A stretch of 64,000 bases of DNA. Source: Clostridium sp. CAG:343 (GTDB lineage: Bacteria > Bacillota > Clostridia > TANB77 > CAG-508). The position numbers and the translations under genes are program-made. Numbering within the stretch: position 1 is the stretch's first letter; every line of letters begins with the position of its first letter. A model generated the notes under the pieces. That model was not told the DNA's origin, made no database searches, and saw only the letters and a list, made by a program, of their open reading frames with translations. Positions 5,877-28,595 of this stretch are shown here, piece by piece. The stretch is from NCBI GenBank assembly GCA_000431335.1, contig FR888054.1:96307-160306 (forward strand), given 5' to 3'.

Positions 5877-8800
5877 TTAATCTACTTTAATTTCATTTTT
5901 CAATTCGTAATTGTCTATTTTCATTATTAAATAATTAAATCCATTTATTGAAAAATCTTCTCCTTGTTTTCCTCTTTTTAAGCTTTGACCTACTGGAGCT
6001 TCTGGCGAAATTTTATTGTATCCAATTTTTCTTAATTCTTCTATTTCTGATTCATATATATATAATTTTAATGTTTCATTTTGATCCTCACTATATAATT
6101 CATATAATTTTACTTCATCTATTGTTTGTTTTATATACTTATTGTTTTCACTTTTTATTTCTTCAATTTGTTTATCCATCTTTTTTATATTTAAAGTTGC
6201 ATCTTCTATATCATATTTACTTTCAATTTGTCCTAAAAAATAATCTTCAATAAATTGCCATCTTTCATCATCATTTTTTAATTGAGTAAAGAAATATGTC
6301 ATATAACAAACTGAATCATAATGTAATTTTTGAATTGTCGTTAATGTTCTGCTTTTATATGAATGATTATCTAATACTTTTTGTATAGTTTCTTCACTGT
6401 TTACACGAACAAAAAATTCTAAACTATTTCCTCTTTCAAATGTATATGATGTTAAGTCAAGTAATTCTAATATTTGTGCAGCAATTAATATTGGATCAGA
6501 TCTCATCTTTTTATTATCATCTTTATTAGTATTTATTACTAATATAGTTTCATTATTGTCCTTACATGACTTAAGCATATTTTCTATTGAATTTTTAATA
6601 TGATTTATAGTTCTATCATAATATGCTGAAACAATATGATATCTATTAGTTTTTGAATTATAATCACAAAACTTATATTTTCCAGCTGTATAGTTAAAAT
6701 CGTAAGAAATTAACAAACTAAGTAGTGGTTCAATTAGGTTATTTACTTTTGTTTTACTATTATTAATTCCCTTTTTTATAATTAATTCTGCTATTTCATT
6801 TGAATTATAATGTTTATTTGACATTTTCATGTCATCTAATACACTTTTTATAACATTTAACCATTGTATTGCTTTTATTTCTACATCTCCAAAATCATTT
6901 AATTTTGCAGATAATTTTAATAAAGTTCTATCACTAAAACATGTTCTGTCTATTTGTGGTAATTCCCCTAAGTAAAATTTTCTTTTAAAATTACCAAATG
7001 TTAATCCATCATATTTACCATTATAATGTTCTAACCAACATTGTTTAAAATCAAAAACATATAAATCTCCCGTATATTTAGTCTTTACATCAGATACGTC
7101 CATTTTTTCTAATTGTTTTCTATCATATTTTAATTCTAAATACTTTTTCCAACCATATTGTTCAATGATAGGCATTTTTGAATCTGAAATAAAAAATAAT
7201 CCTTTAGTAAACATACTTCTTGGTTTAAATACTAAAGGCACATAATTTGACATACTTTTAAAATCTCTCTTTATTGCTATAATTGTTGCCTTTAATTTAT
7301 TTTCTATTTCATCATCGTTTGTTGCTTGAAACACATGTGCAAATTCATCTGTAGAAACCAAAAAATTTCTTCTATTTCCAGTCTTATATTTATATAAGAT
7401 TTTCATAAGAACACCAATAATATTGTAAACTGTAATTTGAGACATTCCTTCTAATTTATTAATATATCTGAAATCTTCTTTGTAAAAATCTGTAGATGCA
7501 ATTCCTTTCATTCCAGGCTTTCTTGCCGCTCTTCCAATCTCTTGAACATAATCTGCTAAGTTTCCTGTAGGTGCAAAGTGATAAACATTTTTTATATCTT
7601 CAATATCAATTCCCATGCCAAAAGCTTTTGTTGCTAAAATTATATTCTTATTTCCTTTTCTTATATCTTCAAGTGCCTCGTCTTTGTCTATCTTATCCAT
7701 TTTTCCATGATATATAGCAACTTCATTGTCTGAAAAATTACTAGCTATATTATTTAAAGATTTTATTGTTGGAAAATATACTAGTGTTTTTTCATTATAG
7801 TTTTCAGAATAATCCCTAATTCTTTTAATTACTATTTCATCCTTTTCTTCTTTATATGCACGATCCTTTAAATGATTATATATATTAAAACTTATATCAT
7901 TTCTTTTTATCGCTCCAAAAAAGGTATCACAAGTTAAATTCAAACTCTCAACTATATCATGATACATATCTTCTGTTCCATTGCTAATAGTTGCTGTAGC
8001 TGTAAAAGTTGCAATTGGAAAAATATGTTTTGTTTTATGTCTTAATTTATCTAAATAATCTCCTAAATACCAATAATCCGGTCTAAAATTTTTTCCCCAA
8101 GTAGAAACAGTATGAGCTTCATCCACCACTAATAATCCAATTTGTCTATCTCCTATAAATGTTTCTATGTCTGCATTACTTAATAAAGTTTCAGGAGATA
8201 TATATAAGATAGAAATTTTCTTTTCTTTAATATCTTCTATAATTTTTTCCTTTTCTATTGGTGTAAATTCTGAATTTATAGTTGCTGCACAATTAGTTAA
8301 TACTTTTATATTATTCACTTGATCTTTCATTAGTCCTATTAATGGTGATATTACTATAGTTAATAATTCATTCTTTTCAGCCGCAACTATTGCAGGTATT
8401 TGGAATAAAATTGATTTACCGGCACCTGTTGGTGCTGTCACAAAAATATCTTTAAAACTTTCATTGTTTTGCGCTCTTAAAATGTTTTGATATATTGTAT
8501 CTATAATAATACTTTGATCTACATCTTCCATTTCATTACTATTAAATGGATCTTTATACATTGGGATTTTTCTAAAATTGTATTCAGAATTTTTTCTTTT
8601 TAAAACTTCTAAATATACATTATATAAATCCGGTACAACATCCCTTTTTTTTCTTTTTTCTTCTATAATATTTATCCCCATATAATTAAGAATAAATAAG
8701 AATTTTTTTATATATTTTTCATCTTTTCCTTCAATTTGAATAAATTTAATAGTATTATATTTCCCATCTAATATTTCATTAAAAACTTGAATAAACTCTT

Positions 8801-9386
8801 CTGAAGTCGAATTATCAAATAACTCTGTTTCTTTTACTATATCTAATTTTTTATTTTCATAGTACTCTGAATACCTTCTGATTAACTTTACAAACATTTC
8901 GGATATTTCATTTTCAAATTTATTATAAGAAATAACTAAATTTCCATTTCTAATTTCCATACTAGTATATATTTTCTGTAGCATGTTACTTTGAGTCGTT
9001 TCTTCTTCAAATTTTTTTATTATATTTTTCAAATTTTCACTTTGAATACCTGGATAGTAATAATCAAAACAACCTATATCTATTATTTTTATTTTATATC
9101 CTGAAGCTTGAACTAATCCATATAAATTCTTCTTTTCAACATAAATTATTTCTTCATATAAACACCAATAAATATTCTTTGAACTTAATTTGATGAAATT
9201 ATCTTTCATAAACGCTTCATCATCTACATAAAAAATATTCATCAAGTCTTTAATTATTCCTAAATCAAATATATGCTCACATTTTAAGTTGATTCTTTTA
9301 ATTATAGAATCAAAACCTTTTAACACATATATAGTTTTTTCTTCGTTAACTATCTTAGAAATTTCATCTTCAATCATCTTCAACAT
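5877..9386 (-). CDS. large RecQ-family SF2 helicase (1169 aa) with uncharacterised N- and C-terminal extensions
   Basis: Motif I TAPTGAGKS. Motif II VVDEAHTVSTWGKNFRPDY mirrors the RecQ signature DEAHC.S.WGHDFRP. Motif V/VI GMGIDIEDI...YVQEIGRAARKPG. About 300 aa N-terminal and 350 aa C-terminal have no recognised domain. Confidence 0.7.
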   Translation of the reverse strand: MLKMIEDEISKIVNEEKTIYVLKGFDSIIKRINLKCEHIFDLGIIKDLMNIFYVDDEAFMKDNFIKLSSKNIYWCLYEEIIYVEKKNLYGLVQASGYKIKIIDIGCFDYYYPGIQSENLKNIIKKFEEETTQSNMLQKIYTSMEIRNGNLVISYNKFENEISEMFVKLIRRYSEYYENKKLDIVKETELFDNSTSEEFIQVFNEILDGKYNTIKFIQIEGKDEKYIKKFLFILNYMGINIIEEKRKKRDVVPDLYNVYLEVLKRKNSEYNFRKIPMYKDPFNSNEMEDVDQSIIIDTIYQNILRAQNNESFKDIFVTAPTGAGKSILFQIPAIVAAEKNELLTIVISPLIGLMKDQVNNIKVLTNCAATINSEFTPIEKEKIIEDIKEKKISILYISPETLLSNADIETFIGDRQIGLLVVDEAHTVSTWGKNFRPDYWYLGDYLDKLRHKTKHIFPIATFTATATISNGTEDMYHDIVESLNLTCDTFFGAIKRNDISFNIYNHLKDRAYKEEKDEIVIKRIRDYSENYNEKTLVYFPTIKSLNNIASNFSDNEVAIYHGKMDKIDKDEALEDIRKGNKNIILATKAFGMGIDIEDIKNVYHFAPTGNLADYVQEIGRAARKPGMKGIASTDFYKEDFRYINKLEGMSQITVYNIIGVLMKILYKYKTGNRRNFLVSTDEFAHVFQATNDDEIENKLKATIIAIKRDFKSMSNYVPLVFKPRSMFTKGLFFISDSKMPIIEQYGWKKYLELKYDRKQLEKMDVSDVKTKYTGDLYVFDFKQCWLEHYNGKYDGLTFGNFKRKFYLGELPQIDRTCFSDRTLLKLSAKLNDFGDVEIKAIQWLNVIKSVLDDMKMSNKHYNSNEIAELIIKKGINNSKTKVNNLIEPLLSLLISYDFNYTAGKYKFCDYNSKTNRYHIVSAYYDRTINHIKNSIENMLKSCKDNNETILVINTNKDDNKKMRSDPILIAAQILELLDLTSYTFERGNSLEFFVRVNSEETIQKVLDNHSYKSRTLTTIQKLHYDSVCYMTYFFTQLKNDDERWQFIEDYFLGQIESKYDIEDATLNIKKMDKQIEEIKSENNKYIKQTIDEVKLYELYSEDQNETLKLYIYESEIEELRKIGYNKISPEAPVGQSLKRGKQGEDFSINGFNYLIMKIDNYELKNEIKVD

Positions 9387-10113: not shown

Positions 10114-11010
10114 TTAAACTTCTAATGTTCCTATATAATAGTCATAACTGTTTGATTTATATTTGTCCTTTAAAAACGAAACTGAGTAATCTTTATTAGA
10201 AACATATATATGTACATTTTTAGATTCACATTCAAATGTTATGTCTCCTGCTGAATTCTGAGTTATTGTATTATAATTACTATAATAGTTCAAGCTATTT
10301 GATGGAGCTTCCCCTATTATTATTATTTTTGGATTTATCTTGTCTAATATTTCTTTTGGAATTTTACCAGATTCTCTACCATGATGTGGAGCAAAAATAA
10401 TATCCGCTTCTTCTATCTCCAAATCATCTTTTATATTCTCCATAAAGTCCTTTTCTAAATCCCCAAACCATAATACTTTAACTCCATCTTCTAAACTATA
10501 CTTGATAATTGGTGATATATTATTAGGACTCTCTCCCTCTTTTGCATTTTCTAATGCATTTTTAAAATATTGATTATTTGTATTTGGCCATAATATATTT
10601 ATACCAGAAGATCCTCTTTCAAATCCAGAATCATCTTTTCCTTCTCTATTCATCCATTTTCTACTGCAACCCTCGTATAAATAAAAATGTTTATTTCCAT
10701 CTCTTAAAGAACAATATTCCTCAAAATCTTCTGTTTTATCTTTTTTTGTTGCTTTGTTTTCCACACAATAAAAATTATTTATACCAACTTTTTCTCTATA
10801 TCTTTTTAATCCCATGATGTGATCTTCATCTGGATGAGTAGAAATGAACCTAGTAATTCCTTTATTTTTAGATTTATCAATTATTTCATCTATAATTTTA
10901 TCCTCATTATCTTCATGCATATAACAGTCAATTACTGTAAAATTATCTGAACCATGTTTAATATAAAACATATCTCCATTTCCAACTGAAAACGATTTTA
11001 TGATACTCAT
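10114..11010 (-). CDS. MBL-fold metallo-hydrolase
   Basis: HPDEDH (HxHxDH) motif with downstream His/Asp ligands (APHHG). Confidence 0.6.
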   Translation of the reverse strand: MSIIKSFSVGNGDMFYIKHGSDNFTVIDCYMHEDNEDKIIDEIIDKSKNKGITRFISTHPDEDHIMGLKRYREKVGINNFYCVENKATKKDKTEDFEEYCSLRDGNKHFYLYEGCSRKWMNREGKDDSGFERGSSGINILWPNTNNQYFKNALENAKEGESPNNISPIIKYSLEDGVKVLWFGDLEKDFMENIKDDLEIEEADIIFAPHHGRESGKIPKEILDKINPKIIIIGEAPSNSLNYYSNYNTITQNSAGDITFECESKNVHIYVSNKDYSVSFLKDKYKSNSYDYYIGTLEV

Positions 11011-11690: not shown

Positions 11691-12335
11691 TTATTCTAAA
11701 TATTCTTTTAATCCATCAATTATTTTATACACTTTGGTCATTGGATTTTTTCGTGATGCTTGTCCATCTTTATTTAATTCTTCCATATATTCGCAATTCT
11801 TTATTGCTGTATGTAGCCTTTCTTCACTTGTAGCTTTTTCAAAAATGTTTGTATCGTTTTTAGTATATTCCCCTAAACCTTTTTTCTGAAATTCTTTACT
11901 TAATTCTTGTAATACATTGTCCTTTGAAATATACCTATTTACTTTCTTAAAATGTGATAATAACCACAATTCAAAATTAGGATTAGACCAAGCCACATTA
12001 TAATCACAGGTTTTAATTGCTTTATCAAATTGTTCATCTGAGTAATCATCTTTATCAAACACAACCCAAACTTGTCCATATCTTTTATTTGAATAATTTA
12101 CAAATTTATCTGTATATTTTACTAAAGCTGTGGTATTTTCACCTGTTCCTTTTATTTCAATATTAGGAATTAATACATCAACTTTGCTTCCATACTTTTC
12201 ATTTATCTTTTTCTTTAATCCATTAAAATAATTGGGTTCAGTTTGCTTCCCTTCACATACAATTAAGTAATTAGCTGGTGCAAGCCTCTTACTTTTTAAT
12301 CTGTCTTTTCTTGATATATTTCTATTATTCTTCAT
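11691..12335 (-). CDS. RloB-like (Toprim-like) protein, AbiLii-like
   Basis: N-terminus LIVCEGKQTEPNYF is the hallmark of the RloB family. It overlaps the upstream ATPase gene by 11 nt. Confidence 0.6.
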   Translation of the reverse strand: MKNNRNISRKDRLKSKRLAPANYLIVCEGKQTEPNYFNGLKKKINEKYGSKVDVLIPNIEIKGTGENTTALVKYTDKFVNYSNKRYGQVWVVFDKDDYSDEQFDKAIKTCDYNVAWSNPNFELWLLSHFKKVNRYISKDNVLQELSKEFQKKGLGEYTKNDTNIFEKATSEERLHTAIKNCEYMEELNKDGQASRKNPMTKVYKIIDGLKEYLE

Positions 12336-13557
12336 GTATTATATCAAATTCTTCCAATACTGGAATAGCACCATACCTTCCAGTTAAATAGTCTTTATTG
12401 TATGTTGCATCATTTCTTACTTTTTTACCTGCATTTTTATCATCTTCTAATATATAATCAGATAATGCATATATTTCTGAAATTCCATCTTTGTCTTTTT
12501 CTGCAAACCATATTTCATCTCTTCTAAATGTTTCTTTATTTAAGTTTACCGTATCATGTGTTGAATATATTAACTGTCCATTTCCTATATTGGTCAGACT
12601 ATTATGAAACAAGTTAATAATATATCTAGTTAATAGTGGATGTAATTTTGCATCTAATTCATCAACAAATAATACCATTCCATTTTTTAATGCATCCATA
12701 AAGAAATCAAATAAGTGAAACATTTTTCTCGTACCATTAGATTCTAAATAAAATGGCAATGCTTTTAACTTTCCATTTTCTCCCCTGTGAAGAACTTCAA
12801 TATCTATAATACCATTATTATTTTTAACAGCTTCTATTGAATCTGGTGTAGTTTTTATTCCTTCAATTCCAGAATCAAATGTCTTTATAAATTTTAATAA
12901 TTCTTTTTTATAAATTTCATCGCTTAGTATTTTTAATGAAACTCTGTTATTAATAAATCTTTCAAAATTTGGATTACCTAAGTCTAAATACATGCTATTC
13001 ACAAACCAGTCATATACATTGCTAAAATCCTCATTATTTCTATCTATTTTGCTATATATATTTAAGAATAATGTTCTTTCATCTATATTCACTAAATCTG
13101 AAATTTTATTAGGTTTCATTGATACATTGTTATTTTCTCTTTCGAAAATAACATAGAATTTATTTACCCTTTTCTCAAATAACCATTCTGAAATAATTGT
13201 ATCCTTTAAAACTTCAAAACCATATTTATATATTTTATTATTTTTAGCTAATATTTCTACTTCTAAAGCTATTGGATCATTATTTATCATAAAACTATAA
13301 ATATTTTCTTCATCTATTGGAGAATTCTTTTTAGAGTCATCACTTACCAATATTCTTTTTTTCATATAGTCAAAAGCTTGTAACACATTAGTTTTTCCAC
13401 TAGCATTGGCACCATAAATTGCAGATACTTTCAAATATTCACCATTTTCTGTTTTAGCCACATTATATTCATGTTCTTTTAATGATGTTGCTTCCATATC
13501 TAAACAATTTTCATTTTTAAAAGATTTGAAATTTTTAAAACTAAATCTTATTAACAT
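12325..13557 (-). CDS. AAA ATPase (AAA_21/AAA_15 ABC-like), AbiLi-like
   Basis: Walker A GANASGKTN, a split ABC-type ATPase layout, and Walker B LFVDELD. Confidence 0.6.
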   Translation of the reverse strand: MLIRFSFKNFKSFKNENCLDMEATSLKEHEYNVAKTENGEYLKVSAIYGANASGKTNVLQAFDYMKKRILVSDDSKKNSPIDEENIYSFMINNDPIALEVEILAKNNKIYKYGFEVLKDTIISEWLFEKRVNKFYVIFERENNNVSMKPNKISDLVNIDERTLFLNIYSKIDRNNEDFSNVYDWFVNSMYLDLGNPNFERFINNRVSLKILSDEIYKKELLKFIKTFDSGIEGIKTTPDSIEAVKNNNGIIDIEVLHRGENGKLKALPFYLESNGTRKMFHLFDFFMDALKNGMVLFVDELDAKLHPLLTRYIINLFHNSLTNIGNGQLIYSTHDTVNLNKETFRRDEIWFAEKDKDGISEIYALSDYILEDDKNAGKKVRNDATYNKDYLTGRYGAIPVLEEFDIIHEE

Positions 13558-15490: not shown

Positions 15491-17059
15491 CTATTTATTA
15501 ATCTTTATCGTCAAATTATTATATCCATATTTATTTAATAATCCTAATAAAGCTTGTCCATCTATAAGAGTTAGAGGTTTATCTTGTGCAAAATCATATG
15601 CTTCTTTTCCATAAAAACTTGTAGTAACAAGAATTCCTTTTGTAGCGCCTTCATGTATCATTGTACCATATAAATCTCTTACAGCGGATACTGGAACAAC
15701 ATTATTATATCTTTTAGCTTGTATAACAAACTTTCCACCTCTTATTGGATCATCATCAAAAGCAATTGCATCAACGCCTCCATCATGACTTGCTTGTGTT
15801 ACTTTAACTTCTCCACCATTAACATTAAACATTTTATCAAATAATTCACGTATAAAATATTCAAAATCCTCCCATGGCATGTTTGCTAGATTAAAACCAT
15901 CTAAATCAATATTAGCAACATCTTTACTCTCTATAAATCTAGAATCTTCTCTATTAATTTTCATATATGGAATAACCGGTGTTAGGGATAAAATATTCGG
16001 TGCAAAAATTCCTTTTAATCCTTTTATACATTCTTTATAATCAACATTTTCAATATTTAAATCCAAGAATTTTTCTTTAGTAGACTCTACTGTAATTATA
16101 CAACTTTCAGCTTCTTTCCCTGTACTTTTGTCAATATACTTAATCCATCCATTATATACAATTTTATCAATATTGTTATTATCATCTGAACGTAATATAT
16201 CATTCATAGTTTTCAAACAACACATAAAAATGATATCATTATAAAACTTCTCAAACTTTTTGTCTGTAAGCTTTATTTCATCAATTTCATTCCTTGTACT
16301 AACATATTTATGTTGGATGATTCTTGGGACAGTATCAGCATTTGGCAAGTAATATGCAATAATTAGTGTTTTACTTTCTTTTAAATATTGTATTTCGAAA
16401 TCTTTAACAACTTCGCTTGGCATATAAATATTTTCAATAACATATTCAAAATAATCCTCTATCTGTTGGATATTACCTTCGTTATATTCTTTTCTATTAT
16501 TTTCAACTTGTTTGTTCTTTTCTTCTTGTTCTTTTAAAAATTTTTCTTTTTGCCTATCATATTCTTCTCTTTCTTCTTTTAGTTTCTTATTATATTCATC
16601 ATTTCTTTTTAGTAATTCTGCATTTGCTTCTTCTTCTTTTTTTATTCTAAAATTTTTCCTATTAGTAGAAAAAATTTCTATCCAGCTTTTTTTGGGGACA
16701 TTTAATTCTTCTTTTATTTCTTCTATTGTGTCTCTTTTTAACTTTGATTCAAATTTTCTAAATTCGGATTTATCTATTAAACTGTCATAATATTTTTTTG
16801 ATTTCTGAATATTTCTTTTATTTATAATATTTTTATAACTTTCTATCTTCTTTTCATCGTTTTTTGTTAATTGTTCGGCTTTTCTTTTCATTTCTTCTTT
16901 ATTTTGTTTAGCAATCTCTCTTTTTACTCTTTCGTCCCAAATTCTTTTTTGATTTTCAACCTTGGCATCAAGTTCGTACCTTGTTGGTGCACTAATTTCC
17001 TTGCTTACTCCTAAAAAGTCATTACTTAACACTACTCTATAATAGTTTCTATATGCCAT
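15491..17059 (-). CDS. Mrr_cat-type restriction endonuclease-domain protein with N-terminal K/E-rich coiled coil
   Basis: C-terminus FEYFIRELF...GGVDAIAF...VIQAKRY matches the Mrr catalytic (PD-(D/E)xK) domain. A long KE-rich helical region sits upstream. Confidence 0.6.
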   Translation of the reverse strand: MAYRNYYRVVLSNDFLGVSKEISAPTRYELDAKVENQKRIWDERVKREIAKQNKEEMKRKAEQLTKNDEKKIESYKNIINKRNIQKSKKYYDSLIDKSEFRKFESKLKRDTIEEIKEELNVPKKSWIEIFSTNRKNFRIKKEEEANAELLKRNDEYNKKLKEEREEYDRQKEKFLKEQEEKNKQVENNRKEYNEGNIQQIEDYFEYVIENIYMPSEVVKDFEIQYLKESKTLIIAYYLPNADTVPRIIQHKYVSTRNEIDEIKLTDKKFEKFYNDIIFMCCLKTMNDILRSDDNNNIDKIVYNGWIKYIDKSTGKEAESCIITVESTKEKFLDLNIENVDYKECIKGLKGIFAPNILSLTPVIPYMKINREDSRFIESKDVANIDLDGFNLANMPWEDFEYFIRELFDKMFNVNGGEVKVTQASHDGGVDAIAFDDDPIRGGKFVIQAKRYNNVVPVSAVRDLYGTMIHEGATKGILVTTSFYGKEAYDFAQDKPLTLIDGQALLGLLNKYGYNNLTIKINK

Positions 17060-17070
17060 TTTTCCATCTC

Positions 17071-19032
17071 CTACTCATATTTGTACTCTTCACTATCTTC
17101 AGCAACTTTTAGTTCAGTATATTGATTTTCCTCATCTACTGTGTAAATTATTTCTTTGGCTGTAGTCAATCTGTTTTTTAAATATTCAGATAAAGCTTTG
17201 TCTTCGCAGTATATATAACACCCATTTTGTCCTCTTGTTAATAATGTCCTATATGTATTTTTTATAATTTCATCTGCCAATTTTAAAGCTCCTTCTGGAT
17301 TTTCTTTATACATCTTCTTTATTCCAGATAAAGATTTATCTGTTGATGCTCTTTCTTTAAAATCTGTTATAATTTTTCCGTTTTCATATCGTAAATCTTT
17401 TCCTATAATTACTCCAACATAGTCAAATTCTAATCCTTGTGATGTATGTATGCAACCAGCTTGTTCAACAGAATCTTTATCTATTGCCCAAATTGTTTTA
17501 TTAAAATTCCATTTCATTTTAAAATCATATTCTGGTATCTCTATGTCATATTTATCACCTTTAGGATCTTCTTTTGAAATCCAATCCCAGCAGTATCCTG
17601 CCAATATTCTTGATTTATTCTTAATATTATTACATCTAATAATTTGTTCTTTTAGCTCATTTGGATTATCAAAAACTTTAACTCTATAATCTTTAAGAAA
17701 TGTCATATCTATTTCTTCATCAGTCACGTCACCATACTGTAGAGAGCTTTCTACCCAATCTATAAATTTTTCAGCTCCTCCGCATCTAAATTGAGCATTT
17801 AATTTTCCATATGATATTTCAGCATTTAATTCTTTAGCAAAAAATTCTATTCTTTCTTTTGTTCCATAATCATCTATATGTATATGTTGCTTTGAATCAA
17901 TAAAAAATATTGCAAATCTAGTAGCATTAATAATCTCTTTTATTTGATTCTCTCCTCTTTTTAGGAATCCTGTCTTTTCGGTAAGTCTATGTGCTTCATC
18001 AACGATCAATGCATCAAACTCATTGCTTTTTTCATTTATATATGATCCTGACCCACAAAATAAATTATCAATTTCAGTCTTTTTATATGTTCCTTTTAAT
18101 TGAACAGAATAAACATCTCTTGGTGTTTGATTTTTTGTTATATACTGACAGTTCATTCCATACTTTCCCAAAAATTGTCCTAGTAAATTTATTGCAATTA
18201 CAGACTTTCCTGTACCAGGTCCACCTTCTACTATATAAACTCTTTTCTTACCATCTTTTTTTGATAATTTTGCTAATCTTTTTGCTTCTTCAAATACATC
18301 CTTTTGTAAATCAACCATAGAAAATTCTTCTTTACCATTTAGCATATTTAATATATTATCCTGTAATTGTTTTGAAGGTTTGATTCCACCTTCTTCTAGT
18401 ATATATAATGTTTCCTTATTATCTCCATATTTTATATGTTTTCTAATAAATTCTTTTAGCTTATCATTCTCTCCATTCAAAAAAATTGGTGACTCTTTTA
18501 AAAGGCTTCTATATTGATTGTTTGTTATAGCATCATTTTCTGTTTTTTCATATCTATGTAAACACGAACATGGAATTATATCCATTTTTTCTTCTTCTGC
18601 AGCCGCATAGAAATTTTTCATAATTTTTGCATATGAAAGTGCTTGATATGAAGGATGTTGTACTATACCATATGCTTTTACTTCAACCATATCATCTCTA
18701 TCTGTAACTACTTTAGCACTATTCCACCTTTTGAATTCTATTACTATAATTGTGTGTTCCTTCTCTTCGTTTAATCCACATATTATAAAATCCACTCTTA
18801 ATTTTGAATTATATAATTTAAATTCCATTGCTACAGAAATATCATTTGGAAATATATTATCTCTTAATATTTTTTCCATATGATTTGCTGTATCTATCCA
18901 AGATTCATTTTCACTACTACCTACATTAAATCCTAATCTTGCTTTTATTTTTTTGGCTACTTGATCATTATATACATCTTCTAAAAAAGATTGTTTCGTT
19001 GCCTCATATACTATCATAATAATTGCCCCCAT
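17071..19032 (-). CDS. nuclease-helicase: N-terminal PD-(D/E)xK-like segment plus DUF2075/SF1-type P-loop ATPase
   Basis: N-terminus D...IEFKRW is a PD-ExK-like motif. Walker A GGPGTGKS and Walker B/DEAH-like VDEAHRL are present. The C-terminal region resembles a UvrD-like SF1 helicase. Confidence 0.55.
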   Translation of the reverse strand: MGAIIMIVYEATKQSFLEDVYNDQVAKKIKARLGFNVGSSENESWIDTANHMEKILRDNIFPNDISVAMEFKLYNSKLRVDFIICGLNEEKEHTIIVIEFKRWNSAKVVTDRDDMVEVKAYGIVQHPSYQALSYAKIMKNFYAAAEEEKMDIIPCSCLHRYEKTENDAITNNQYRSLLKESPIFLNGENDKLKEFIRKHIKYGDNKETLYILEEGGIKPSKQLQDNILNMLNGKEEFSMVDLQKDVFEEAKRLAKLSKKDGKKRVYIVEGGPGTGKSVIAINLLGQFLGKYGMNCQYITKNQTPRDVYSVQLKGTYKKTEIDNLFCGSGSYINEKSNEFDALIVDEAHRLTEKTGFLKRGENQIKEIINATRFAIFFIDSKQHIHIDDYGTKERIEFFAKELNAEISYGKLNAQFRCGGAEKFIDWVESSLQYGDVTDEEIDMTFLKDYRVKVFDNPNELKEQIIRCNNIKNKSRILAGYCWDWISKEDPKGDKYDIEIPEYDFKMKWNFNKTIWAIDKDSVEQAGCIHTSQGLEFDYVGVIIGKDLRYENGKIITDFKERASTDKSLSGIKKMYKENPEGALKLADEIIKNTYRTLLTRGQNGCYIYCEDKALSEYLKNRLTTAKEIIYTVDEENQYTELKVAEDSEEYKYE

Positions 19033-21971: not shown

Positions 21972-22246
21972 AGTATCACCTCCTTATATTTTTCTAGAAG
22001 AGATTTTTATCTTTCCTTCCCTTCTATTTAATAGCCCACAAACTACCTTCAAAATAAGCCCCTTTTCAAAAATTTTTTTATATTTTTTTGTTAATTTTAT
22101 TTTGTTAGTGTTTTCAATAGTTTCAAGGATTATTTTTTATTAAACTTATTGCATTTCGCGTTAGTTTTTTGTATAATTTAATTAATTTGTTAGCAATTTT
22201 ATTTTGGTTATTTTATTGCAATTTGTATTTATAGGAGGAAATTTTA

Positions 22247-23338
22247 GTGTTAAGAGAAAATAACATTCCAGTTAAAAATAGTTTTAATATATGGTTTAAT
22301 AGAGAAAAAAGAAAAGAGTTTTATACAACTTCTATAATTTTGTATAAAACTGCCTTTAATCATAATCCTAATAATAAATTTTCTAACATTATTCTTAAAC
22401 CAAATGAAGCTACTAACAAAATCTACTTTACTTCGGCTAATTTTAATGCCCCTTTTGAAGAAAGCTATGGTACATTATTAATTAGATTTCTAAATAGCAA
22501 TTTTTCAACTTTTAAAACTGCTTATGATACTTTCTTTTGTTTTTATGGATTTTCAATATTAGAGGAATTTTATAAAAACATTCCTAAAGCACAATTATTT
22601 AAATCAAAAAAGGACTTTTTTAACACTTATGAACCAATTTTTATAAATATTAAACGTAAATTAAAAGAATTACAATATTTAATGAAAAGGTGTATTGATT
22701 ATATGTATAATCTAAATAACAATTTGGAGGATAAAAATTATTCTTCATTTGAAAAATATTTAACATATGTAATAAAGAATAATCTTTTTAGATATTCAAC
22801 AAATATTGATGTATTTTATTTTCAACAATTTGCACATGATACATTAAATATAGCTGTTGAATCTATCACACCAAAAATAGTGAGAGAGCATTTAGAAAAT
22901 GGAATAATAGATGTAAATGATAGTCCAGTTTTTCATGCATGTAATTTATCTAATATTCTATATGTATCATTGTCAGAAATTGCATCAAATAAGGATATAA
23001 AAATTAAGACTTGTAAAAATTGTGGCAAATACTTTATTCCAATTAAAAATACAGAAAAATATTGTGATATTACTTATTATGAAAATGAAAAAACTTGTAA
23101 AACAATTGGTGCTACTAATTCTTATACTAAAAAACGAAAAACTGTAGAAGGAATAAGATTTTATAGAAATAACTATCAAAGAAGGTTGATGCAAGCTAAA
23201 AGATCTAATAATCAGCAAATTGAATTTGCTTTTGAAAATTGGAAGAAACTCTCTAAGGTTAAGATTAAGGAATTTAATAATAATGAGATTTCTGAAGAAA
23301 AGTTAATTGAGTGGATGAAGAGAAATAAAAATATTTAG
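22247..23338 (+). CDS. hypothetical protein with C-terminal zinc-ribbon (CKNCGKYF...EKYCD)
   Basis: ORF with a plausible RBS GGAGGA. No recognisable catalytic domain. Confidence 0.35.
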   Translation: MLRENNIPVKNSFNIWFNREKRKEFYTTSIILYKTAFNHNPNNKFSNIILKPNEATNKIYFTSANFNAPFEESYGTLLIRFLNSNFSTFKTAYDTFFCFYGFSILEEFYKNIPKAQLFKSKKDFFNTYEPIFINIKRKLKELQYLMKRCIDYMYNLNNNLEDKNYSSFEKYLTYVIKNNLFRYSTNIDVFYFQQFAHDTLNIAVESITPKIVREHLENGIIDVNDSPVFHACNLSNILYVSLSEIASNKDIKIKTCKNCGKYFIPIKNTEKYCDITYYENEKTCKTIGATNSYTKKRKTVEGIRFYRNNYQRRLMQAKRSNNQQIEFAFENWKKLSKVKIKEFNNNEISEEKLIEWMKRNKNI

Positions 23339-23401
23339 ATTACAATTTTTGATTATGTATATAATTAAAAGAATGACAATTTTTAAGAGAGTATAGAAAA
23401 A

Positions 23402-24747
23402 GTTGTGTAAATAAATCCTTCCGTGATAAAATATAAAATATCAAGGAGGGATTTTTCTATGGGTAAAAAAATAGAAAAAGAAAAAAATGAAATAGTAGAG
23501 GAGTTTTTTAGAAGGAATGATCCAAAAAATATTAAATCCATGAATGATATGTACACAGCCTGGAAAGATTTCTTTGCCCCTGCTTTTCAACAATTGTTGG
23601 ATGCTGAAATGGAAGCAAAAATTGGTTATTCCAAAAACGAAAGAACAGATAATAATAATTATCGAAATGGATATTATCCAGAAAGAACTGTAGCAACAGA
23701 AATGGGAGATATTCCAGTAAAAGTTCCTAGAGATAGAAACGGAGAAATTGATTCCGATTTAGTGCCTAAATAATCAAGAACAGCAAATGGTTTTGATGAA
23801 AAAGTAATATCTATGTATGCATTAGGAATGTCTGATAGGGACATTCAGGAACAAATAAAGGAGATATTTGGCTGTAATCTTTCACCAGATATGATAAGTG
23901 ATATAACAGATAAAATTATACCTGAAATACAAGAATGGCAAAAAAGGAAATTAGAAAGTGTATACCCTATAGTATTTATTGATTCTACTCATTTTCATGT
24001 TAGAGATAATGGACAGATAGTAAAAAAAGCAACCTATGTTGTGTTAGGAATTGATAAAGATGGAATGAAAAAAGTTTTAACAATAACAATTGGAGAAAAT
24101 GAAAGTGCAAAATATTGGATGACTGTATTAAACGAACTTAAAAATCGCGGAGTACAAGATATTTTAGTATTATGTGCAGATGGATTGACAGGGCTTAAAG
24201 ATGCAATATCAGCAATATACCCTAAGACGGAATATCAAAGATGTATAGTGCATCAAATAAGGAACTCTTTAAAGTATGTACCATATACAGATAGAAAAGA
24301 ACTTGCTAATGATTTAAAAACAGTTTACAAAGCAAGTACAGAGGAATTAGGGTATACTAACTTATTAGAGTTGGAAGAAAAATGGAAACATAAATATCCT
24401 GGTGCGATTCAAAGTTGGATAGATAACTGGGATGTACTTTCAGTATTCTTTAAATTTTCTACTGAAATAAGAAAAATAATGTATACAACAAGTGCGATAG
24501 AGAGCTTAAATAGTACCTATAAACGAATAAATCGAAACAGAAATGTATTTATGTATGAAGGCAGAATATAAAATAAAGCCTAAAAATAATAGGCTTAAGA
24601 AGGATTTTTCTTAAGCCCTATTAAACTTACACAACTTTTTCTAAAATATTGATTTTTTAGAAAAATATTATTAAAATAATGTTAATAATAAAAATATTAA
24701 ATTTTTTTAAGTTATCAATCGGAAGGAAATCCGATTTACACAACATT
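23402..24747 (+). mobile_element. IS256-family insertion sequence remnant
   Basis: Terminal inverted repeats run from gttgtgtaaat..atccttcc at 23402..23424 to its reverse complement at 24721..24747. An extra IRR-like copy lies at 24626..24641. The interior encodes an IS256-type transposase. Confidence 0.6.
23423..24571 (+). pseudogene. IS256-family (Mutator-like) transposase, interrupted by an in-frame TAA at 23771..23773 and C-terminally truncated
   Basis: The two ORFs are in the same frame and separated only by a TAA where intact homologs have Gln/Arg (DLVPK*SRTANGFDEK). The protein ends about 30 aa short of family length. Confidence 0.65.
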
Positions 24748-24767
24748 TACGATACTCTCCTTTTGTC

Positions 24768-25508
24768 TTATATATTTTTATCCATCCAGTCTACTTCATT
24801 AGGATATATAATATCTGCAAAATATGCATTTTCATTATAATCATATTTAAACCATCCTTTTATTTCTTGCTCATCTTTATTTTTCATGTCTTCAATCATA
24901 ACATTAATAAAATTGTCATAAGTCATTTTTGAATATGCAATAATATTTTTCCCATTTCTACCTGCCACATTAGCTAAATTACATGCTTTTACTACTGCAT
25001 TTCCAATCCAAATTTTATCATTTATTCCAGACCCTTTTTTTCCTGCTTTTACAATTAAATCTTGTCCAACAGATACTCCAATTCCCACTCTAATTTGTCT
25101 TAATTCTTCTCTTTGAAATAATTTATTTAGCATTTTAATACATGTGTTGATATATGCAGATATATCAACTAATTCATATATATCTTTTTGATACGGCGTA
25201 TTGTAAATTCCATACACACAATCACCCCTTATACCTATTTCTCTTACATTATTACTACTATTCATAATAGTAATTAACTCAGATGAAAAACTTCTCAAAA
25301 TTTTTGACACCTTAATATCTTCTTCTTTACCTATAATATCTGATGATTTGACAATATCTACGAAAATAGATCCAATCCATGATTTAATACCATTACTATA
25401 TGTAAATTCACTATCGTCTTTAGGAACATTTTTTTCTTCAATTTCCTCATTGTTTTTTAGAATTTCTTCAACTCTTTTTTTTCCTTCCTCAAAATTGTAA
25501 AATGCCAT
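24768..25508 (-). CDS. class III nucleotidyl cyclase (adenylate/guanylate cyclase fold), PycC-like
   Basis: Metal-binding motifs FVDIVKSS and IRGDCVYG (like F.DI.GFT and IGDCYM). RVGIGVSVGQ and WIGNAVVKACNLANVA match the RIGIH.G and WGD.VN.ASR signatures. Good RBS AGAGGGAG. Confidence 0.6.
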   Translation of the reverse strand: MAFYNFEEGKKRVEEILKNNEEIEEKNVPKDDSEFTYSNGIKSWIGSIFVDIVKSSDIIGKEEDIKVSKILRSFSSELITIMNSSNNVREIGIRGDCVYGIYNTPYQKDIYELVDISAYINTCIKMLNKLFQREELRQIRVGIGVSVGQDLIVKAGKKGSGINDKIWIGNAVVKACNLANVAGRNGKNIIAYSKMTYDNFINVMIEDMKNKDEQEIKGWFKYDYNENAYFADIIYPNEVDWMDKNI

Positions 25509-25521
25509 AATTTTTCTCCCT

Positions 25522-26106
25522 CTATATTATCTTAAAAATTTTTACTATAAATAATAGTATTATAGTTATCATAGCCATATTTAGTCCAATATTATAATTT
25601 TTAAATTTTTTATTGCATATTTTACTATTTATATATACTTGTGAAAGTATATCATTTATATTGCTCTGTTTTGTTTGATTTTTTATTTTTTTGTTAAATT
25701 CTTCATAATTATATTTAGAAATACTTCCATAAAACACTAATGAATTTAGTGTTACCCCTGATTCTTTAAATTCTTTAATATTGATTTTTCCTTTTAGAGC
25801 ATATATTAATTTTATTATTGAAAAAATTGTATTAAAATAAAGTAATAACACCAATAGTCCTTTTGCTATTTTGGAAAAACTTAGACTGTTATTGTTTATA
25901 GTTGTTACTATTCTTTCGATAAAGTCAATATTTGAATCTATTAATATATATCCTAAAACAACTCCCATAAATGCAATAAGTATTGATATCTTTATATCCA
26001 CATTATTAATCCATTCTTTTATATTATCCAAGATATATTTCGCATTTTCAATTTTTTCTCCATATTCTTTTTCTTTATTTTCTGTTGACATCCTTATATT
26101 CTCCAT
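25522..26106 (-). CDS. 3-TM membrane protein (candidate PycTM-like effector)
   Basis: Three predicted hydrophobic helices. It lies immediately upstream of the cyclase on the same strand with a 13-nt gap. Confidence 0.4.
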   Translation of the reverse strand: MENIRMSTENKEKEYGEKIENAKYILDNIKEWINNVDIKISILIAFMGVVLGYILIDSNIDFIERIVTTINNNSLSFSKIAKGLLVLLLYFNTIFSIIKLIYALKGKINIKEFKESGVTLNSLVFYGSISKYNYEEFNKKIKNQTKQSNINDILSQVYINSKICNKKFKNYNIGLNMAMITIILLFIVKIFKII

Positions 26107-26662
26107 TCTGTATATTAGATATTAAAATTTTGTTAAAACTTTGCATTTCATCATAATCCAATACATTACCATATTGTTTTCCACATTTTGGGCAAACATA
26201 TTGTTCCGTTCCAAAATGTCTATTTCCTATTTGCCATTTTTCATCTAGCTGGCATCCACATTCGCATATAGGTATAAAGTTACATAGTGTGTACTTGCCA
26301 TTATAATCTTTTTCATATTGCCATCTAAATTTTACTCTACCTTTATATTTGTCTTCATTATATTTTAGAAAATCTGGTTCTTCTATTTTTTCTTGTTCAT
26401 TTATAATTTTCACATATATAGTTAATATAAGTATTAATGCTATATCTATTATAATATAACCCCCTATAGCTACTTTTATATTTAAAAAATTCCAAATAAT
26501 TTTTATTAATTCCCAAATTTTCTGTCCCAAAAATTTTAATATATTAAACTGCGTAATTTGTTCTACTATAAAATTTGCAATAATTGTACTTATCACTCCT
26601 AGTATGCTTTGTCCAATTAATGACTTAAAAAATTGTTTTATCTTTTTCATTTCTATCTCCAT
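26075..26662 (-). CDS. membrane protein with C-terminal zinc-ribbon (CECGC...CPKCG)
   Basis: Two or three N-terminal TM helices and a C-terminal 4-Cys ribbon. It overlaps the downstream TM gene. Confidence 0.4.
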   Translation of the reverse strand: MEIEMKKIKQFFKSLIGQSILGVISTIIANFIVEQITQFNILKFLGQKIWELIKIIWNFLNIKVAIGGYIIIDIALILILTIYVKIINEQEKIEEPDFLKYNEDKYKGRVKFRWQYEKDYNGKYTLCNFIPICECGCQLDEKWQIGNRHFGTEQYVCPKCGKQYGNVLDYDEMQSFNKILISNIQNGEYKDVNRK

Positions 26663-26909
26663 TTAATCTAATTACTTTGACTCATTATATCATCTTTCTA
26701 GTGTTTTTTCCATATAAATTACAAATTATTACATTTCTTCTAGTATTTTTATGTTTCTTATATATCTTTTTATGAATTTTAGTGTACTCTTTGAAACAGG
26801 CATAAAATAGCTAAAAAAGGCTGGTAATTTTTCTAAAAATAATATATAATACCATAAAATACATACTCCTCCCACCCATAGGCATACTTGAAAGGAGGTG
26901 AAATAAGTA

Positions 26910-28103
26910 ATGGCTGGGAGTATAGAAAAAAGAGGAAAAAATAGTTACAGGCTAACAGTATCTGAAGGATTTGACTTAAATGGAAACCCAATGATACATA
27001 GAAAGACAGTACATGGAACTAAAAAAGATGCAGAAGTTGAACTAGCTAAATTTGTTACTGAAGTACAAAATGGCTTAGTAGTTGATGGTAAATCTCTTAA
27101 ATTTTCTGAATTTACTGAAATATGGAAACGAGATTATGGCTCAAAAGAGCTTGCGCCTTCTACATATAAACGTTATTGTAGAATGTTAGAAACAAGACTT
27201 TTACCATACTTTGGTCATTTCTACATTAATAAAATTAGACCAACTGACATTATGAAGTTTTATGATTTACTTGAAAAAGATACTCAGTTAGTTAGAAAAA
27301 AAGGTAACAATGGTACAAAAACTAAAAAGCCTTTGTCTGGTAAAACAATTTTAGAACATCATAGGTTACTTCGTGCAATGCTACACAGAGCAGTTTATTG
27401 GCAACTTATTGTTAGTAATCCTGCTGAACGTGTTCAAGCTCCTAGAGCAAAAAAGCCAAAAAGAAGATCTTATGATGATGAGCAAACTAAAATATTACTA
27501 GAAAATTTAGAGCAACTTTCTATAGAAGATACTAAATATAAAGTTGCAATCATTCTAACGGTTTTCACAGGCGTTCGTTTAGGTGAACTAATGGGATTAG
27601 AATGGCAAGATATTGATTTTAAAAATGGAATTATTAGTATTAATCGTTCTAGTCAGTATCTATCAGATATGGGAGTCTTTACAAAAGTTCCAAAAACAGA
27701 AAGTTCCATTAGAGAGATTGCAATACCCGAATTTATCATTTCTTTACTTGAGGAATATAAGTTATGGTATGAAGAACAAAAATCGATTTATAACGAATTG
27801 TGGAACGATTCTAATAGGTTATTTGTACAAGCAGATGGCAAACCAATGCATCCTTCTACCATTAGCAAATGGTTTGTAAAATATGTTGGTCAAATAGGTT
27901 TACCTGTAATTAATTTTCACGGATTAAGACATACAAATGCAAGTTTACTAGTTGCACAGAATATTGATATAGCAATAATTTCTGCGAGACTTGGTCATGC
28001 ACAAATAAGTACTACACTTAATTTTTATGTGCATCCACTACTTTCTCATAACAGAAAAGCTGGATATGCACTAGAAAACTTATTATTACCAACAAGGTCT
28101 TAA
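26910..28103 (+). CDS. int: tyrosine recombinase / phage-type integrase
   Basis: N-terminal AP2-like arm-binding segment. The C-terminal catalytic motifs R...HGLRHT...Y(HPLLSH..R) are present. It sits at the right end of island A. Confidence 0.8.
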   Translation: MAGSIEKRGKNSYRLTVSEGFDLNGNPMIHRKTVHGTKKDAEVELAKFVTEVQNGLVVDGKSLKFSEFTEIWKRDYGSKELAPSTYKRYCRMLETRLLPYFGHFYINKIRPTDIMKFYDLLEKDTQLVRKKGNNGTKTKKPLSGKTILEHHRLLRAMLHRAVYWQLIVSNPAERVQAPRAKKPKRRSYDDEQTKILLENLEQLSIEDTKYKVAIILTVFTGVRLGELMGLEWQDIDFKNGIISINRSSQYLSDMGVFTKVPKTESSIREIAIPEFIISLLEEYKLWYEEQKSIYNELWNDSNRLFVQADGKPMHPSTISKWFVKYVGQIGLPVINFHGLRHTNASLLVAQNIDIAIISARLGHAQISTTLNFYVHPLLSHNRKAGYALENLLLPTRS

Positions 28104-28376: not shown

Positions 28377-28421
28377 TGGTTGCGGGGGTAAGACTCGAAC
28401 TTACGACCTTCGGGTTATGAG
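28377..28421 (-). other. partial tRNA-Met, 3' 45 nt (anticodon loop to CCA), att remnant
   Basis: The reverse complement reads ctcataacccgaaggtcgtaagttcgagtcttacccccgcaacca, closely matching the 3' half of the intact tRNA at 33009..33084. No 5' half is present. Confidence 0.55.
28407..28421. repeat. 15-bp direct-repeat core (attR-like)
   Basis: Exact copy of 5286..5300. Confidence 0.55.
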
Positions 28422-28595
28422 ATCACATGCGGGAGAATCTTTATATTTTCAGTATATATTTTTTATTTATATTCAATATTTTCATTAAATCTATACCAAT
28501 TATCACATAAAAAAAAGTAACTACCTAATTTCTCCCCTAAATATAATTTTTTTATCAATATTTCTATTAATAATACAGTAACATTTTATTCTATT

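Follow-up and report, generated by a model that had tools for sequence, protein, structure and literature searches.

Does a gene for a small membrane protein that directly precedes a Pycsar effector and cyclase, on the same strand and with an overlapping end, belong to that defence system? The question is raised by a locus of Clostridium sp. CAG:343 within a 64,000-nucleotide (nt) stretch of contig FR888054.1 (hereafter the window), which an original prediction had described as a three-gene Pycsar-like operon, made up of a Zn-ribbon transmembrane (TM) protein, a 3-TM protein and a class III nucleotidyl cyclase in atypical order, in a defence island next to an integrase. Three open reading frames (ORFs) are indeed present at 24768-25508, 25522-26106 and 26075-26662, all on the minus strand, and we refer to these genes as PycC, PycTM and gene A. 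The features on which the argument turns are as follows.

24768..25508, minus strand: PycC, nucleotide cyclase of 246 amino acids (aa), recognised through PADLOC, Pfam and relatives in the PDB
25522..26091, minus strand: PycTM, 3-TM effector of 189 aa (longest ORF from 26106, 194 aa)
26075..26650, minus strand: gene A, Zn-ribbon membrane protein of 191 aa (longest ORF from 26662, 195 aa)
26684..26712, minus strand: promoter-like site of the gene A-PycTM-PycC unit, TGGAAA, 17 nt, TATAAT, with an extended -10 TG
26910..28103, plus strand: tyrosine integrase, divergent from gene A (Pfam Phage_integrase, 1e-25; Phage_int_SAM_3)

Comparing these genes and their surroundings with those of their relatives, we find that PycTM and PycC very probably constitute a standard two-gene Pycsar system, and that gene A is probably not part of it but the conserved leader of a cargo slot. 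On sequence comparison gene A is the conserved first gene of the integrase-proximal cargo slot in tRNA-Met-integrating elements of gut Firmicutes, namely Clostridium sp. CAG:343 and its relatives, and the locus is a defence hotspot of a mobile element whose cargo, in this case, is a known system. We read gene A as a leader because homology between elements ends at its stop codon and different defence cargo comes after it, and as not specific to Pycsar because of the neighbourhoods of its own homologues, in which SIR2 and HerA genes, a gene for a 312-aa protein or decayed Pycsar genes take the place of the intact pair.

These neighbourhoods differ with the relatedness of gene A. Where it is 76-99% identical to the window copy, PycTM and PycC come next (window, L017, L019-22). 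Copies of 57-65% identity occupy the same position, ~240 nt from a divergent integrase of 395-399 aa that is full length in most loci. SIR2 and HerA follow gene A directly in L008-10, L014-16 and L023-26 (PADLOC HerA 8e-113, SIR2 8e-21), and the 312-aa gene does so in L011-13. In L001-4 and L018, gene A is followed by decayed PycTM and PycC (L001:5560-6641 and its counterparts), PycTM having lost an internal segment and PycC being interrupted by two frameshifts and a stop; despite this decay, gene A is intact on 81 contigs in the L001-4 lineage. An intact counterpart of the PycC of the L001 lineage exists elsewhere (P0031), and 4 kb upstream, at L001:230-1183, lies a gene for an MBL-fold protein that matches Pfam Anti-Pycsar_Apyc1. 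The 312-aa cargo protein (L011:4593-5531, also L012 and L013) gives no significant match in Pfam, PADLOC or NCBIfam and a weak one in PHROGs, to a family of unknown function (E 0.008); its position makes it a candidate new defence gene. More distant members of the gene A family, at 30-35% identity, adjoin AbiTi/AbiTii (L005-6), a restriction-modification (RM) system of BsuBI/PstI type (L007, L108-111) or a GAAD/GASH/DO-GTPase system (L107). All of the contexts examined, nine of them independent, are defence neighbourhoods, with at least six different systems among them.

At the DNA level, the window and the SIR2-HerA or 312-aa loci are similar over one uninterrupted tract that starts at 28422 and covers the integrase, the intergenic region and gene A. 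The tract ends at 26047-26063, that is at the gene A stop (26075) give or take ~25 nt, and similarity resumes near 21996, in a module with HTH_17, replisome-organiser and DnaC-like genes. The window integrase is 73-84% identical to the integrases beside gene A in sister elements, and among elements whose integrases share 73-94% identity we find three types of cargo: Pycsar, SIR2-HerA and the 312-aa gene. L008 and L011, with 94% identical integrases, carry different cargo. Cargo type does not track the lineages of gene A, as SIR2-HerA is found with three different ones, and a single lineage carries SIR2-HerA, the 312-aa gene and, judging from contigs of matching length, Pycsar. The SIR2 and HerA proteins are 83-97% identical between elements whose gene A proteins share 61-68%.

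The converse comparison, starting from the cyclase, gives a concordant picture. We surveyed 80 loci from species-representative genomes with PycC relatives of 39-60% identity, looking for a gene resembling gene A in flanks of up to 5 kb on each side with a single-sequence search and two profile searches. Such a gene is absent from 79 of the 80 and present only in L058, a Marinisporobacter metagenome-assembled genome, where a gene of 33% identity lies behind an integrase, 1.4 kb upstream of the Pycsar pair. Between the two, at L058:3179-4159, is a gene whose 326-aa product has hydrophobic segments and, C-terminally, a CxxC...CxxC motif; neither this protein nor a 397-aa neighbour matches a family in Pfam, PADLOC, PHROGs or NCBIfam. 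The proposal of a three-component Pycsar operon is not supported by these comparisons, in which gene A is missing at nearly all relatives of the pair, heads SIR2-HerA or the 312-aa gene instead, and outlives the decay of Pycsar.

The arrangement resembles the hotspots described in P2/P4 and near the integrase of Bacillus prophages, where a variable locus of 1-5 kb lies between two conserved phage or satellite genes (Rousset et al. 2022, PMC9122126). As there, a cargo of ~1-2.7 kb sits between conserved genes beside the integrase and known defence systems are swapped among closely related elements; the small locus of high turnover is delimited here by the break at the gene A stop and by the resumption of similarity at ~21996. 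Three things differ: the host is an uncultured gut Firmicute and the part of the element covered contains no virion genes; the anchor is the gene of a defence-associated membrane protein that supplies a predicted promoter and translational coupling; and the exchange boundary is the stop codon of that gene. SIR2-HerA is missing from the window but in sister elements fills this slot, immediately behind gene A, which argues that gene A is independent of its cargo.

The sequence around the boundary suggests how the exchange may proceed. The RBS (ribosome-binding site) of the first cargo gene sits inside the last codons of gene A, in the window as a GGAG followed by the PycTM start codon. In Pycsar loci the junction after gene A reads GGAGAATATAAGGATG, and in the SIR2-HerA loci L008, L014 and L023 as well as in L011, with the 312-aa gene, it reads GGAGAATAAAATGGAAGAA (L008:4545-4600, L011:4548-4603); the L025 junction differs from the latter by one A in the spacer. 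Since GGAGAATAAAATGGAAGAA, and with it the first three codons of the cargo, is common to the SIR2 gene and the 312-aa gene, which are otherwise unrelated, the comparison suggests that cassette exchange recombines within the junction of gene A and cargo. A further contrast lies inside gene A: between the window and L021, dS (the synonymous substitution rate) is 1.84 for its C-terminal half (26075-26386), 0.27 for its N-terminal half, 0.33 for PycTM and 0.38 for PycC, which points to a recombination tract within the gene.

As to expression, the promoter-like site at 26684..26712 has the top score in a consensus scan, in which the number of sites across the region is not above shuffle expectation. 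It coincides with the extended -10 block TGATATAAT, which is invariant in 7 of 7 aligned intergenic regions between integrase and gene A, against a mean column identity of 60%. The terminator scan found no terminator-like site between gene A, PycTM and PycC; downstream of PycC it gave a single such hairpin (24591-24618, minus strand), which is internal to an IS256-family element. We therefore infer one transcription unit that would start in the conserved flank, the gene A promoter driving the cargo. The tight spacing that had been described is present, with the gene A stop 17 nt inside the PycTM ORF and a 13-nt gap between PycTM and PycC. Because of this 17-nt overlap, the gaps of 0-1 nt elsewhere and the position of the cargo RBS within gene A codons, translation of the first cargo gene is predicted to be coupled to that of gene A. 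The coordinates used here take the shorter starts of gene A and PycTM, favoured by the homologues and by RBS position: ATG 26650 of gene A is preceded at 6 nt by a GGAG, and its homologues have called lengths of 189-196 aa, while ATG 26091 gives PycTM 189 aa, the length called in its homologues.

The identity of the pair itself is shown by homology. PycC matches the PADLOC model PDLC02368 at 1e-79 over residues 3-245, with nine further PycC models matching more weakly, and scores 27.2 bits against Pfam Guanylate_cyc, above the gathering cut-off of 21.9, so that the assignment to a Pycsar-type cyclase is upheld by the profiles. All of the class III motifs reported for the 246-aa protein were recovered, as FVDI (49-52), IRGDC (93-97), RVGIGV (139-144) and WIGNAVVKACNLAN (167-180). 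In an alignment of 20 homologues of 46-77% identity, residues F49, D51, G92, R94, G95, D96, C97, W167, I168 and G169 are invariant. The two metal-binding aspartates, whose absence would have told against a cyclase, are thus retained, as D51 of FVDI and D96 of RGDC, each in 20 of 20 sequences, and they align with the metal-binding aspartates of 7r65 (positions 52 and 96, counted along the alignment) and 8jsz; the catalytic role of the paired aspartates and the specificity residues of solved PycC enzymes have been described (PMC11224242). A degenerate GGDEF or unrelated palm domain was considered for PycC and is ruled out by the Pfam and PADLOC matches together with the invariant D51 and D96.

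A profile of the PycC family has four matches among solved proteins: 8jsz, 7r65, 8jsf and 6yii. The first three are Pycsar cyclases. The best of them, 8jsz, is the uridylate cyclase AnPycC (profile E 1.2e-8); 8jsf is the cytidylate cyclase EaPycC, and 6yii, deposited as 'Transcriptional regulator', is a comparison structure in PMC11224242. In that work, specificity residues are Y50, D94 and R97 for uridine triphosphate (UTP) in BcPycC and F100, R142 and Q144 for cytidine triphosphate (CTP) in EaPycC. Counting residues along the alignments and setting them against this numbering, the corresponding positions of PycC are F49, R94 and C97, which are nearest to F/K/G of AnPycC and match no characterised triplet exactly. 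With a uridylate cyclase as the best solved relative and a triplet nearest to F/K/G, cyclic UMP (cUMP) may be put forward as a weakly indicated product. Related subclades produce cyclic GMP (cGMP; Pucsar) or possibly cyclic AMP (cAMP; Pycsar-like-4) (bioRxiv 10.64898/2026.08.12.744502).

The original prediction had placed one or more putative effectors ahead of the cyclase; of the two small TM proteins, the 3-TM protein is the Pycsar effector and the Zn-ribbon protein is not. PycTM matches PADLOC PDLC02364 at 4e-32 (other PycTM models at 7e-29 and 6e-23) and Pfam PF18967 with 32.8 bits against a cut-off of 27.2, and has three hydrophobic segments (33-51, 78-96, 168-186). Such 3-TM effectors, named the pJV1-spdB3 family, are paired with stand-alone cyclases (bioRxiv 10.64898/2026.08.12.744502). 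Nor is the gene order atypical. With PycTM located by an iterated profile in the 80 surveyed loci, it lies directly upstream of the cyclase in 49, downstream in 21 and in an 'overlapping' position in four, three of which have it upstream; in six it was not found. Effector-first is thus the commoner order.

Two other arrangements recur among relatives of this Pycsar clade. In L039, L041, L045, L049, L055, L059 and L078 a second cyclase paralogue of 244 aa, at ~4.3-5.0 kb, stands directly upstream of PycTM, giving the order cyclase-PycTM-cyclase, and in L031, L033, L034, L053 and L062 a gene of ~450-477 aa recurs upstream; this agrees with a remark on 'multiple cyclases' in the 2026 Pucsar preprint (bioRxiv 10.64898/2026.08.12.744502).

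Set against Pycsar systems with a TM effector (Tal et al. 2021, as conveyed in PMC11224242), the window pair shares the stand-alone cyclase of class III fold and ~246 aa with both aspartates, the adjacent 3-TM effector above the Pfam PycTM threshold, the coupling across 13 nt and the defence-island location; it shares with Pycsar-1 and -3 the combination of stand-alone cyclase and 3TM pJV1-spdB3 effector (bioRxiv 10.64898/2026.08.12.744502). It differs in that its cyclase is distant from every characterised one, the best PDB match being that to AnPycC, in that its specificity triplet equals that of no studied enzyme, and in that it is coupled to an upstream gene A, which most relatives are without. 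Following the published Pycsar mechanism, phage infection would lead a PycC dimer to synthesise a 3',5'-cyclic mononucleotide, which would activate the membrane effector PycTM, and the resulting membrane damage would abort the infection.

We turn to gene A itself, which had been described as a Zn-ribbon TM protein with four cysteines; the membrane segments and the C-terminal cysteine cluster are there, but the cluster has five. The protein begins with a basic N-terminus, followed by two strongly hydrophobic segments (11-29 and 60-78) with an amphipathic helix between them, and a Cys-rich beta domain, PICECGC...CPKC (CxCxC...CxxC), followed by a helix. From the basic N-terminus, the two TM segments and the positive-inside rule, a 2-TM topology with the N-terminus inside and the Cys-rich beta domain in the cytoplasm is predicted. 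It has no match in Pfam, PADLOC, PHROGs or NCBIfam, and the 47 relatives recovered by a word-index search are likewise nameless in these libraries. An exhaustive HMMER search with the C-terminal domain gave 216 clusters at 50% identity, nearly all of 170-200 aa and with the domain behind a hydrophobic N-terminal half; W110, C131, C153 and C156 are invariant and C129 nearly so. A profile search with the gene A alignment found no relatives in genome contigs and four loci in metagenome contigs, and homologues were not found in IMG/VR, INPHARED phages or PLSDB plasmids.

The ratio of nonsynonymous to synonymous substitution rates (dN/dS) of gene A is 0.16-0.41 in all pairs, including the lineage with decayed Pycsar, compared with 0.10-0.16 for the integrase; by part, it is mostly 0.06-0.34 for the C-terminal domain (one pair 0.57) and 0.22-0.77 for the membrane half. 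A model of the C-terminal domain is a six-stranded beta meander with a helix (predicted local distance difference test, pLDDT, 79). Against the PDB this model reaches at best E 0.4, with Rip1 absent from the matches listed, whereas the top Foldseek match of the full-length model is Rip1 (9oox_L; E 0.02, probability 0.93, TM-scores 0.22/0.31). As the match was not reproduced with the isolated domain, a Rip1-like C-terminal sensing domain was rejected, and the match is kept as a lead and a functional analogy. Profile and sequence searches of PDB sequences returned generic C2H2-like zinc-finger matches only and no similarity to Rip1.

Four roles for gene A can be weighed against these findings, and we rank them, from the most to the least probable, as a stand-alone protein, a backbone gene of the element, a shared accessory and a third component of Pycsar. 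The last of these, in which the membrane-anchored product of gene A would act as sensor or regulator, either by controlling PycC or by gating PycTM, we regard as very improbable. The 17-nt overlap and the lack of a terminator-like site between the genes suit it, as do the occurrence of gene A with Pycsar in several gene A lineages (62-99% identity) and the distant A-like gene near the Pycsar pair of L058; yet no A-like gene accompanies 79 of the 80 Pycsar relatives, an equally tight junction ties gene A to SIR2-HerA and to the 312-aa gene, gene A remains intact and under purifying selection where Pycsar has decayed, and characterised Pycsar systems function with two genes (PMC11224242). A general accessory for the effector that follows, either a phage sensor shared among systems or a restraint on toxic PycTM, SIR2 or 312-aa protein, would accommodate these other partners. 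In the close lineages the effector of the system (PycTM or SIR2) is always next, with an overlap or a gap of 0-1 nt, and nine of nine independent family contexts adjoin defence genes. We nonetheless hold this role to be quite unlikely: in the Pycsar survey effector-first order is usual even without gene A, and distant members follow RM or AbiT genes or stand apart by 36-207 nt, and RM requires no such partner. To our knowledge, no single accessory serves systems so different in mechanism.

Two roles remain. Gene A might be a housekeeping gene of the element, concerned with regulation, maintenance or membrane anchoring and bordering the hotspot without a defence role of its own, which would agree with its place in the conserved flank with the integrase and with hotspots being by definition bounded by conserved non-defence genes (PMC9122126). 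We think this unlikely, as gene A keeps to the cargo in L001 and L025, which have lost the integrase or retain 65 nt of it, distant members occur in unrelated neighbourhoods beside RM, AbiT or the GTPase system, and it evolves faster than the integrase. The leading role, though itself doubtful, is that of a defence by a single, stand-alone protein that is sensor and membrane effector at once, a Rip1-like or superinfection-exclusion (Sie) protein. Gene A remains unbroken where no functional system adjoins it, is under purifying selection, its N-terminal membrane half evolving faster (dN/dS up to 0.77), and has a uniform architecture of ~180 aa over the 216 clusters, always in defence neighbourhoods. 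Its position, that of a membrane gene beside the integrase, is also the one classically taken by Sie genes of Firmicute prophages. Rip1 (ring-interacting pore 1), the top Foldseek match of the full-length model, is a prophage-encoded protein that unites sensor and pore (PMC13434031). Like Rip1 and superinfection-exclusion proteins, gene A encodes a small single-gene product of a mobile element with N-terminal membrane-active helices and a small C-terminal domain, but the TM-scores are low, Rip1 is not among the matches listed for the domain searched by itself, sequence similarity to Rip1 or other solved proteins does not go beyond generic zinc-finger motifs, and gene A has no match in sequenced phages (INPHARED), PLSDB plasmids or IMG/VR. 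Its conserved Cys cluster is not mentioned in the description of Rip1 (PMC13434031). With low confidence, we suggest that gene A acts alone at the membrane and serves the element in exclusion or in a defence of the abortive-infection type.

Several points weigh against the account given here, of a two-gene Pycsar system behind a leader that is independent of it. The main one is ascertainment: the loci examined were retrieved through gene A or PycC, those with gene A all through gene A itself, and elements that have this integrase but lack gene A may exist. L058 provides a second case of an A-like gene close to Pycsar, so that a recurrent link is possible. The loci where gene A stays beside cargo with the integrase lost or a remnant (L001, L025) would also fit a gene that belongs to the cargo operons. 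The promoter scan as a whole did no better than on shuffled sequence, and the absence of an exact counterpart for F49/R94/C97 leaves the cUMP assignment a guess. Finally, gene A has neither a homologue of known function nor a convincing fold match.

Beyond the slot, the element and its surroundings contain the following features.

28377..28422, minus strand: 3' fragment of a tRNA-Met gene, 46 nt, reading the anticodon loop with CAT, the T arm and the acceptor end with CCA
23338..24767, plus strand: IS256-family insertion sequence, with Pfam Transposase_mut on both ORF pieces
22247..23338, plus strand: DUF6076 gene, convergent with the cargo, on the far side of the variable slot (Pfam 1.6e-8)
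17071-19032: Schlafen-type helicase
15491-17059: Mrr-type IV restriction enzyme
11691-13557: AbiLii/AbiLi
10114-11010: MBL protein of the PADLOC candidate PDC-M48B, with a 196-aa neighbour
5877-9386: DpdF/Cas3-like helicase

The tRNA-Met fragment recurs with 100% identity in L023 and is also conserved in L001, L014 and L017, and ARAGORN makes no tRNA call there; we take it as the probable attachment site on the integrase side of the element. No second copy, which would mark the far end of the element, was found within the window. The IS256 element sits exactly between the stop codons of PycC and the DUF6076 gene, where it occupies 1430 nt in place of a 24-nt spacer in L021 and L022, and is probably inactive because its transposase frame has one in-frame stop (VPK*SRT, near 23771). 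The DUF6076 gene holds the same position in L008, L011, L021 and L023; its product, with a Cys-rich C-terminal part, is 71-75% identical between elements with the same cargo and 25-30% between elements with different cargo, and the gene may be exchanged together with the cargo. No mention of the DUF6076 family was found in the literature searched.

Leftward from it the order is replisome organiser, DnaC-like loader, MazG-like protein, Schlafen-type helicase, Mrr-type restriction enzyme, metallophosphoesterase, AbiLi/AbiLii, PDC-M48B and DpdF/Cas3-like helicase, and then host genes, among them those for choloylglycine hydrolase, rubrerythrin and Spo0A. The locus therefore does lie, as had been proposed, in a defence island adjoining the integrase, with several other defence genes at 5.8-28.4 kb of the window. 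A complete prophage was considered and set aside, as the larger leftward ORFs gave defence and then host genes and no clear virion genes (22 of 25 ORFs of at least 100 aa in 1-22000). In IMG/VR, the integrase has a relative at 43% identity only.

The Pycsar pair itself adds little, being a further member of a large clade and already deposited as hypothetical proteins of Clostridium sp. CAG:343. PycC is identical to CDC06556.1 and gene A to CDC06558.1, a 'putative membrane protein', which occur on 583 and 450 contigs, respectively. Its cyclase may be of interest, because F49, R94 and C97 are invariant in the clade and unstudied, and its product would extend the map of cyclic-nucleotide immune signals. 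The slot has a more practical value. A conserved promoter and a leader gene whose stop codon marks the boundary provide an anchor for mining defence genes from short contigs of gut metagenomes, and the 312-aa cargo gene is an example of a candidate found through it. As for the unnamed gene A family, its occurrence beside at least six defence systems makes it a reasonable candidate for a small membrane protein of defence or exclusion. We tentatively propose that it may constitute a hitherto undescribed single-gene system of phage defence or exclusion, or else a portable module at the membrane that couples to whichever effector follows, whose gene would in addition serve as a recombination anchor for the swapping of defence cassettes among mobile elements of gut Firmicutes.

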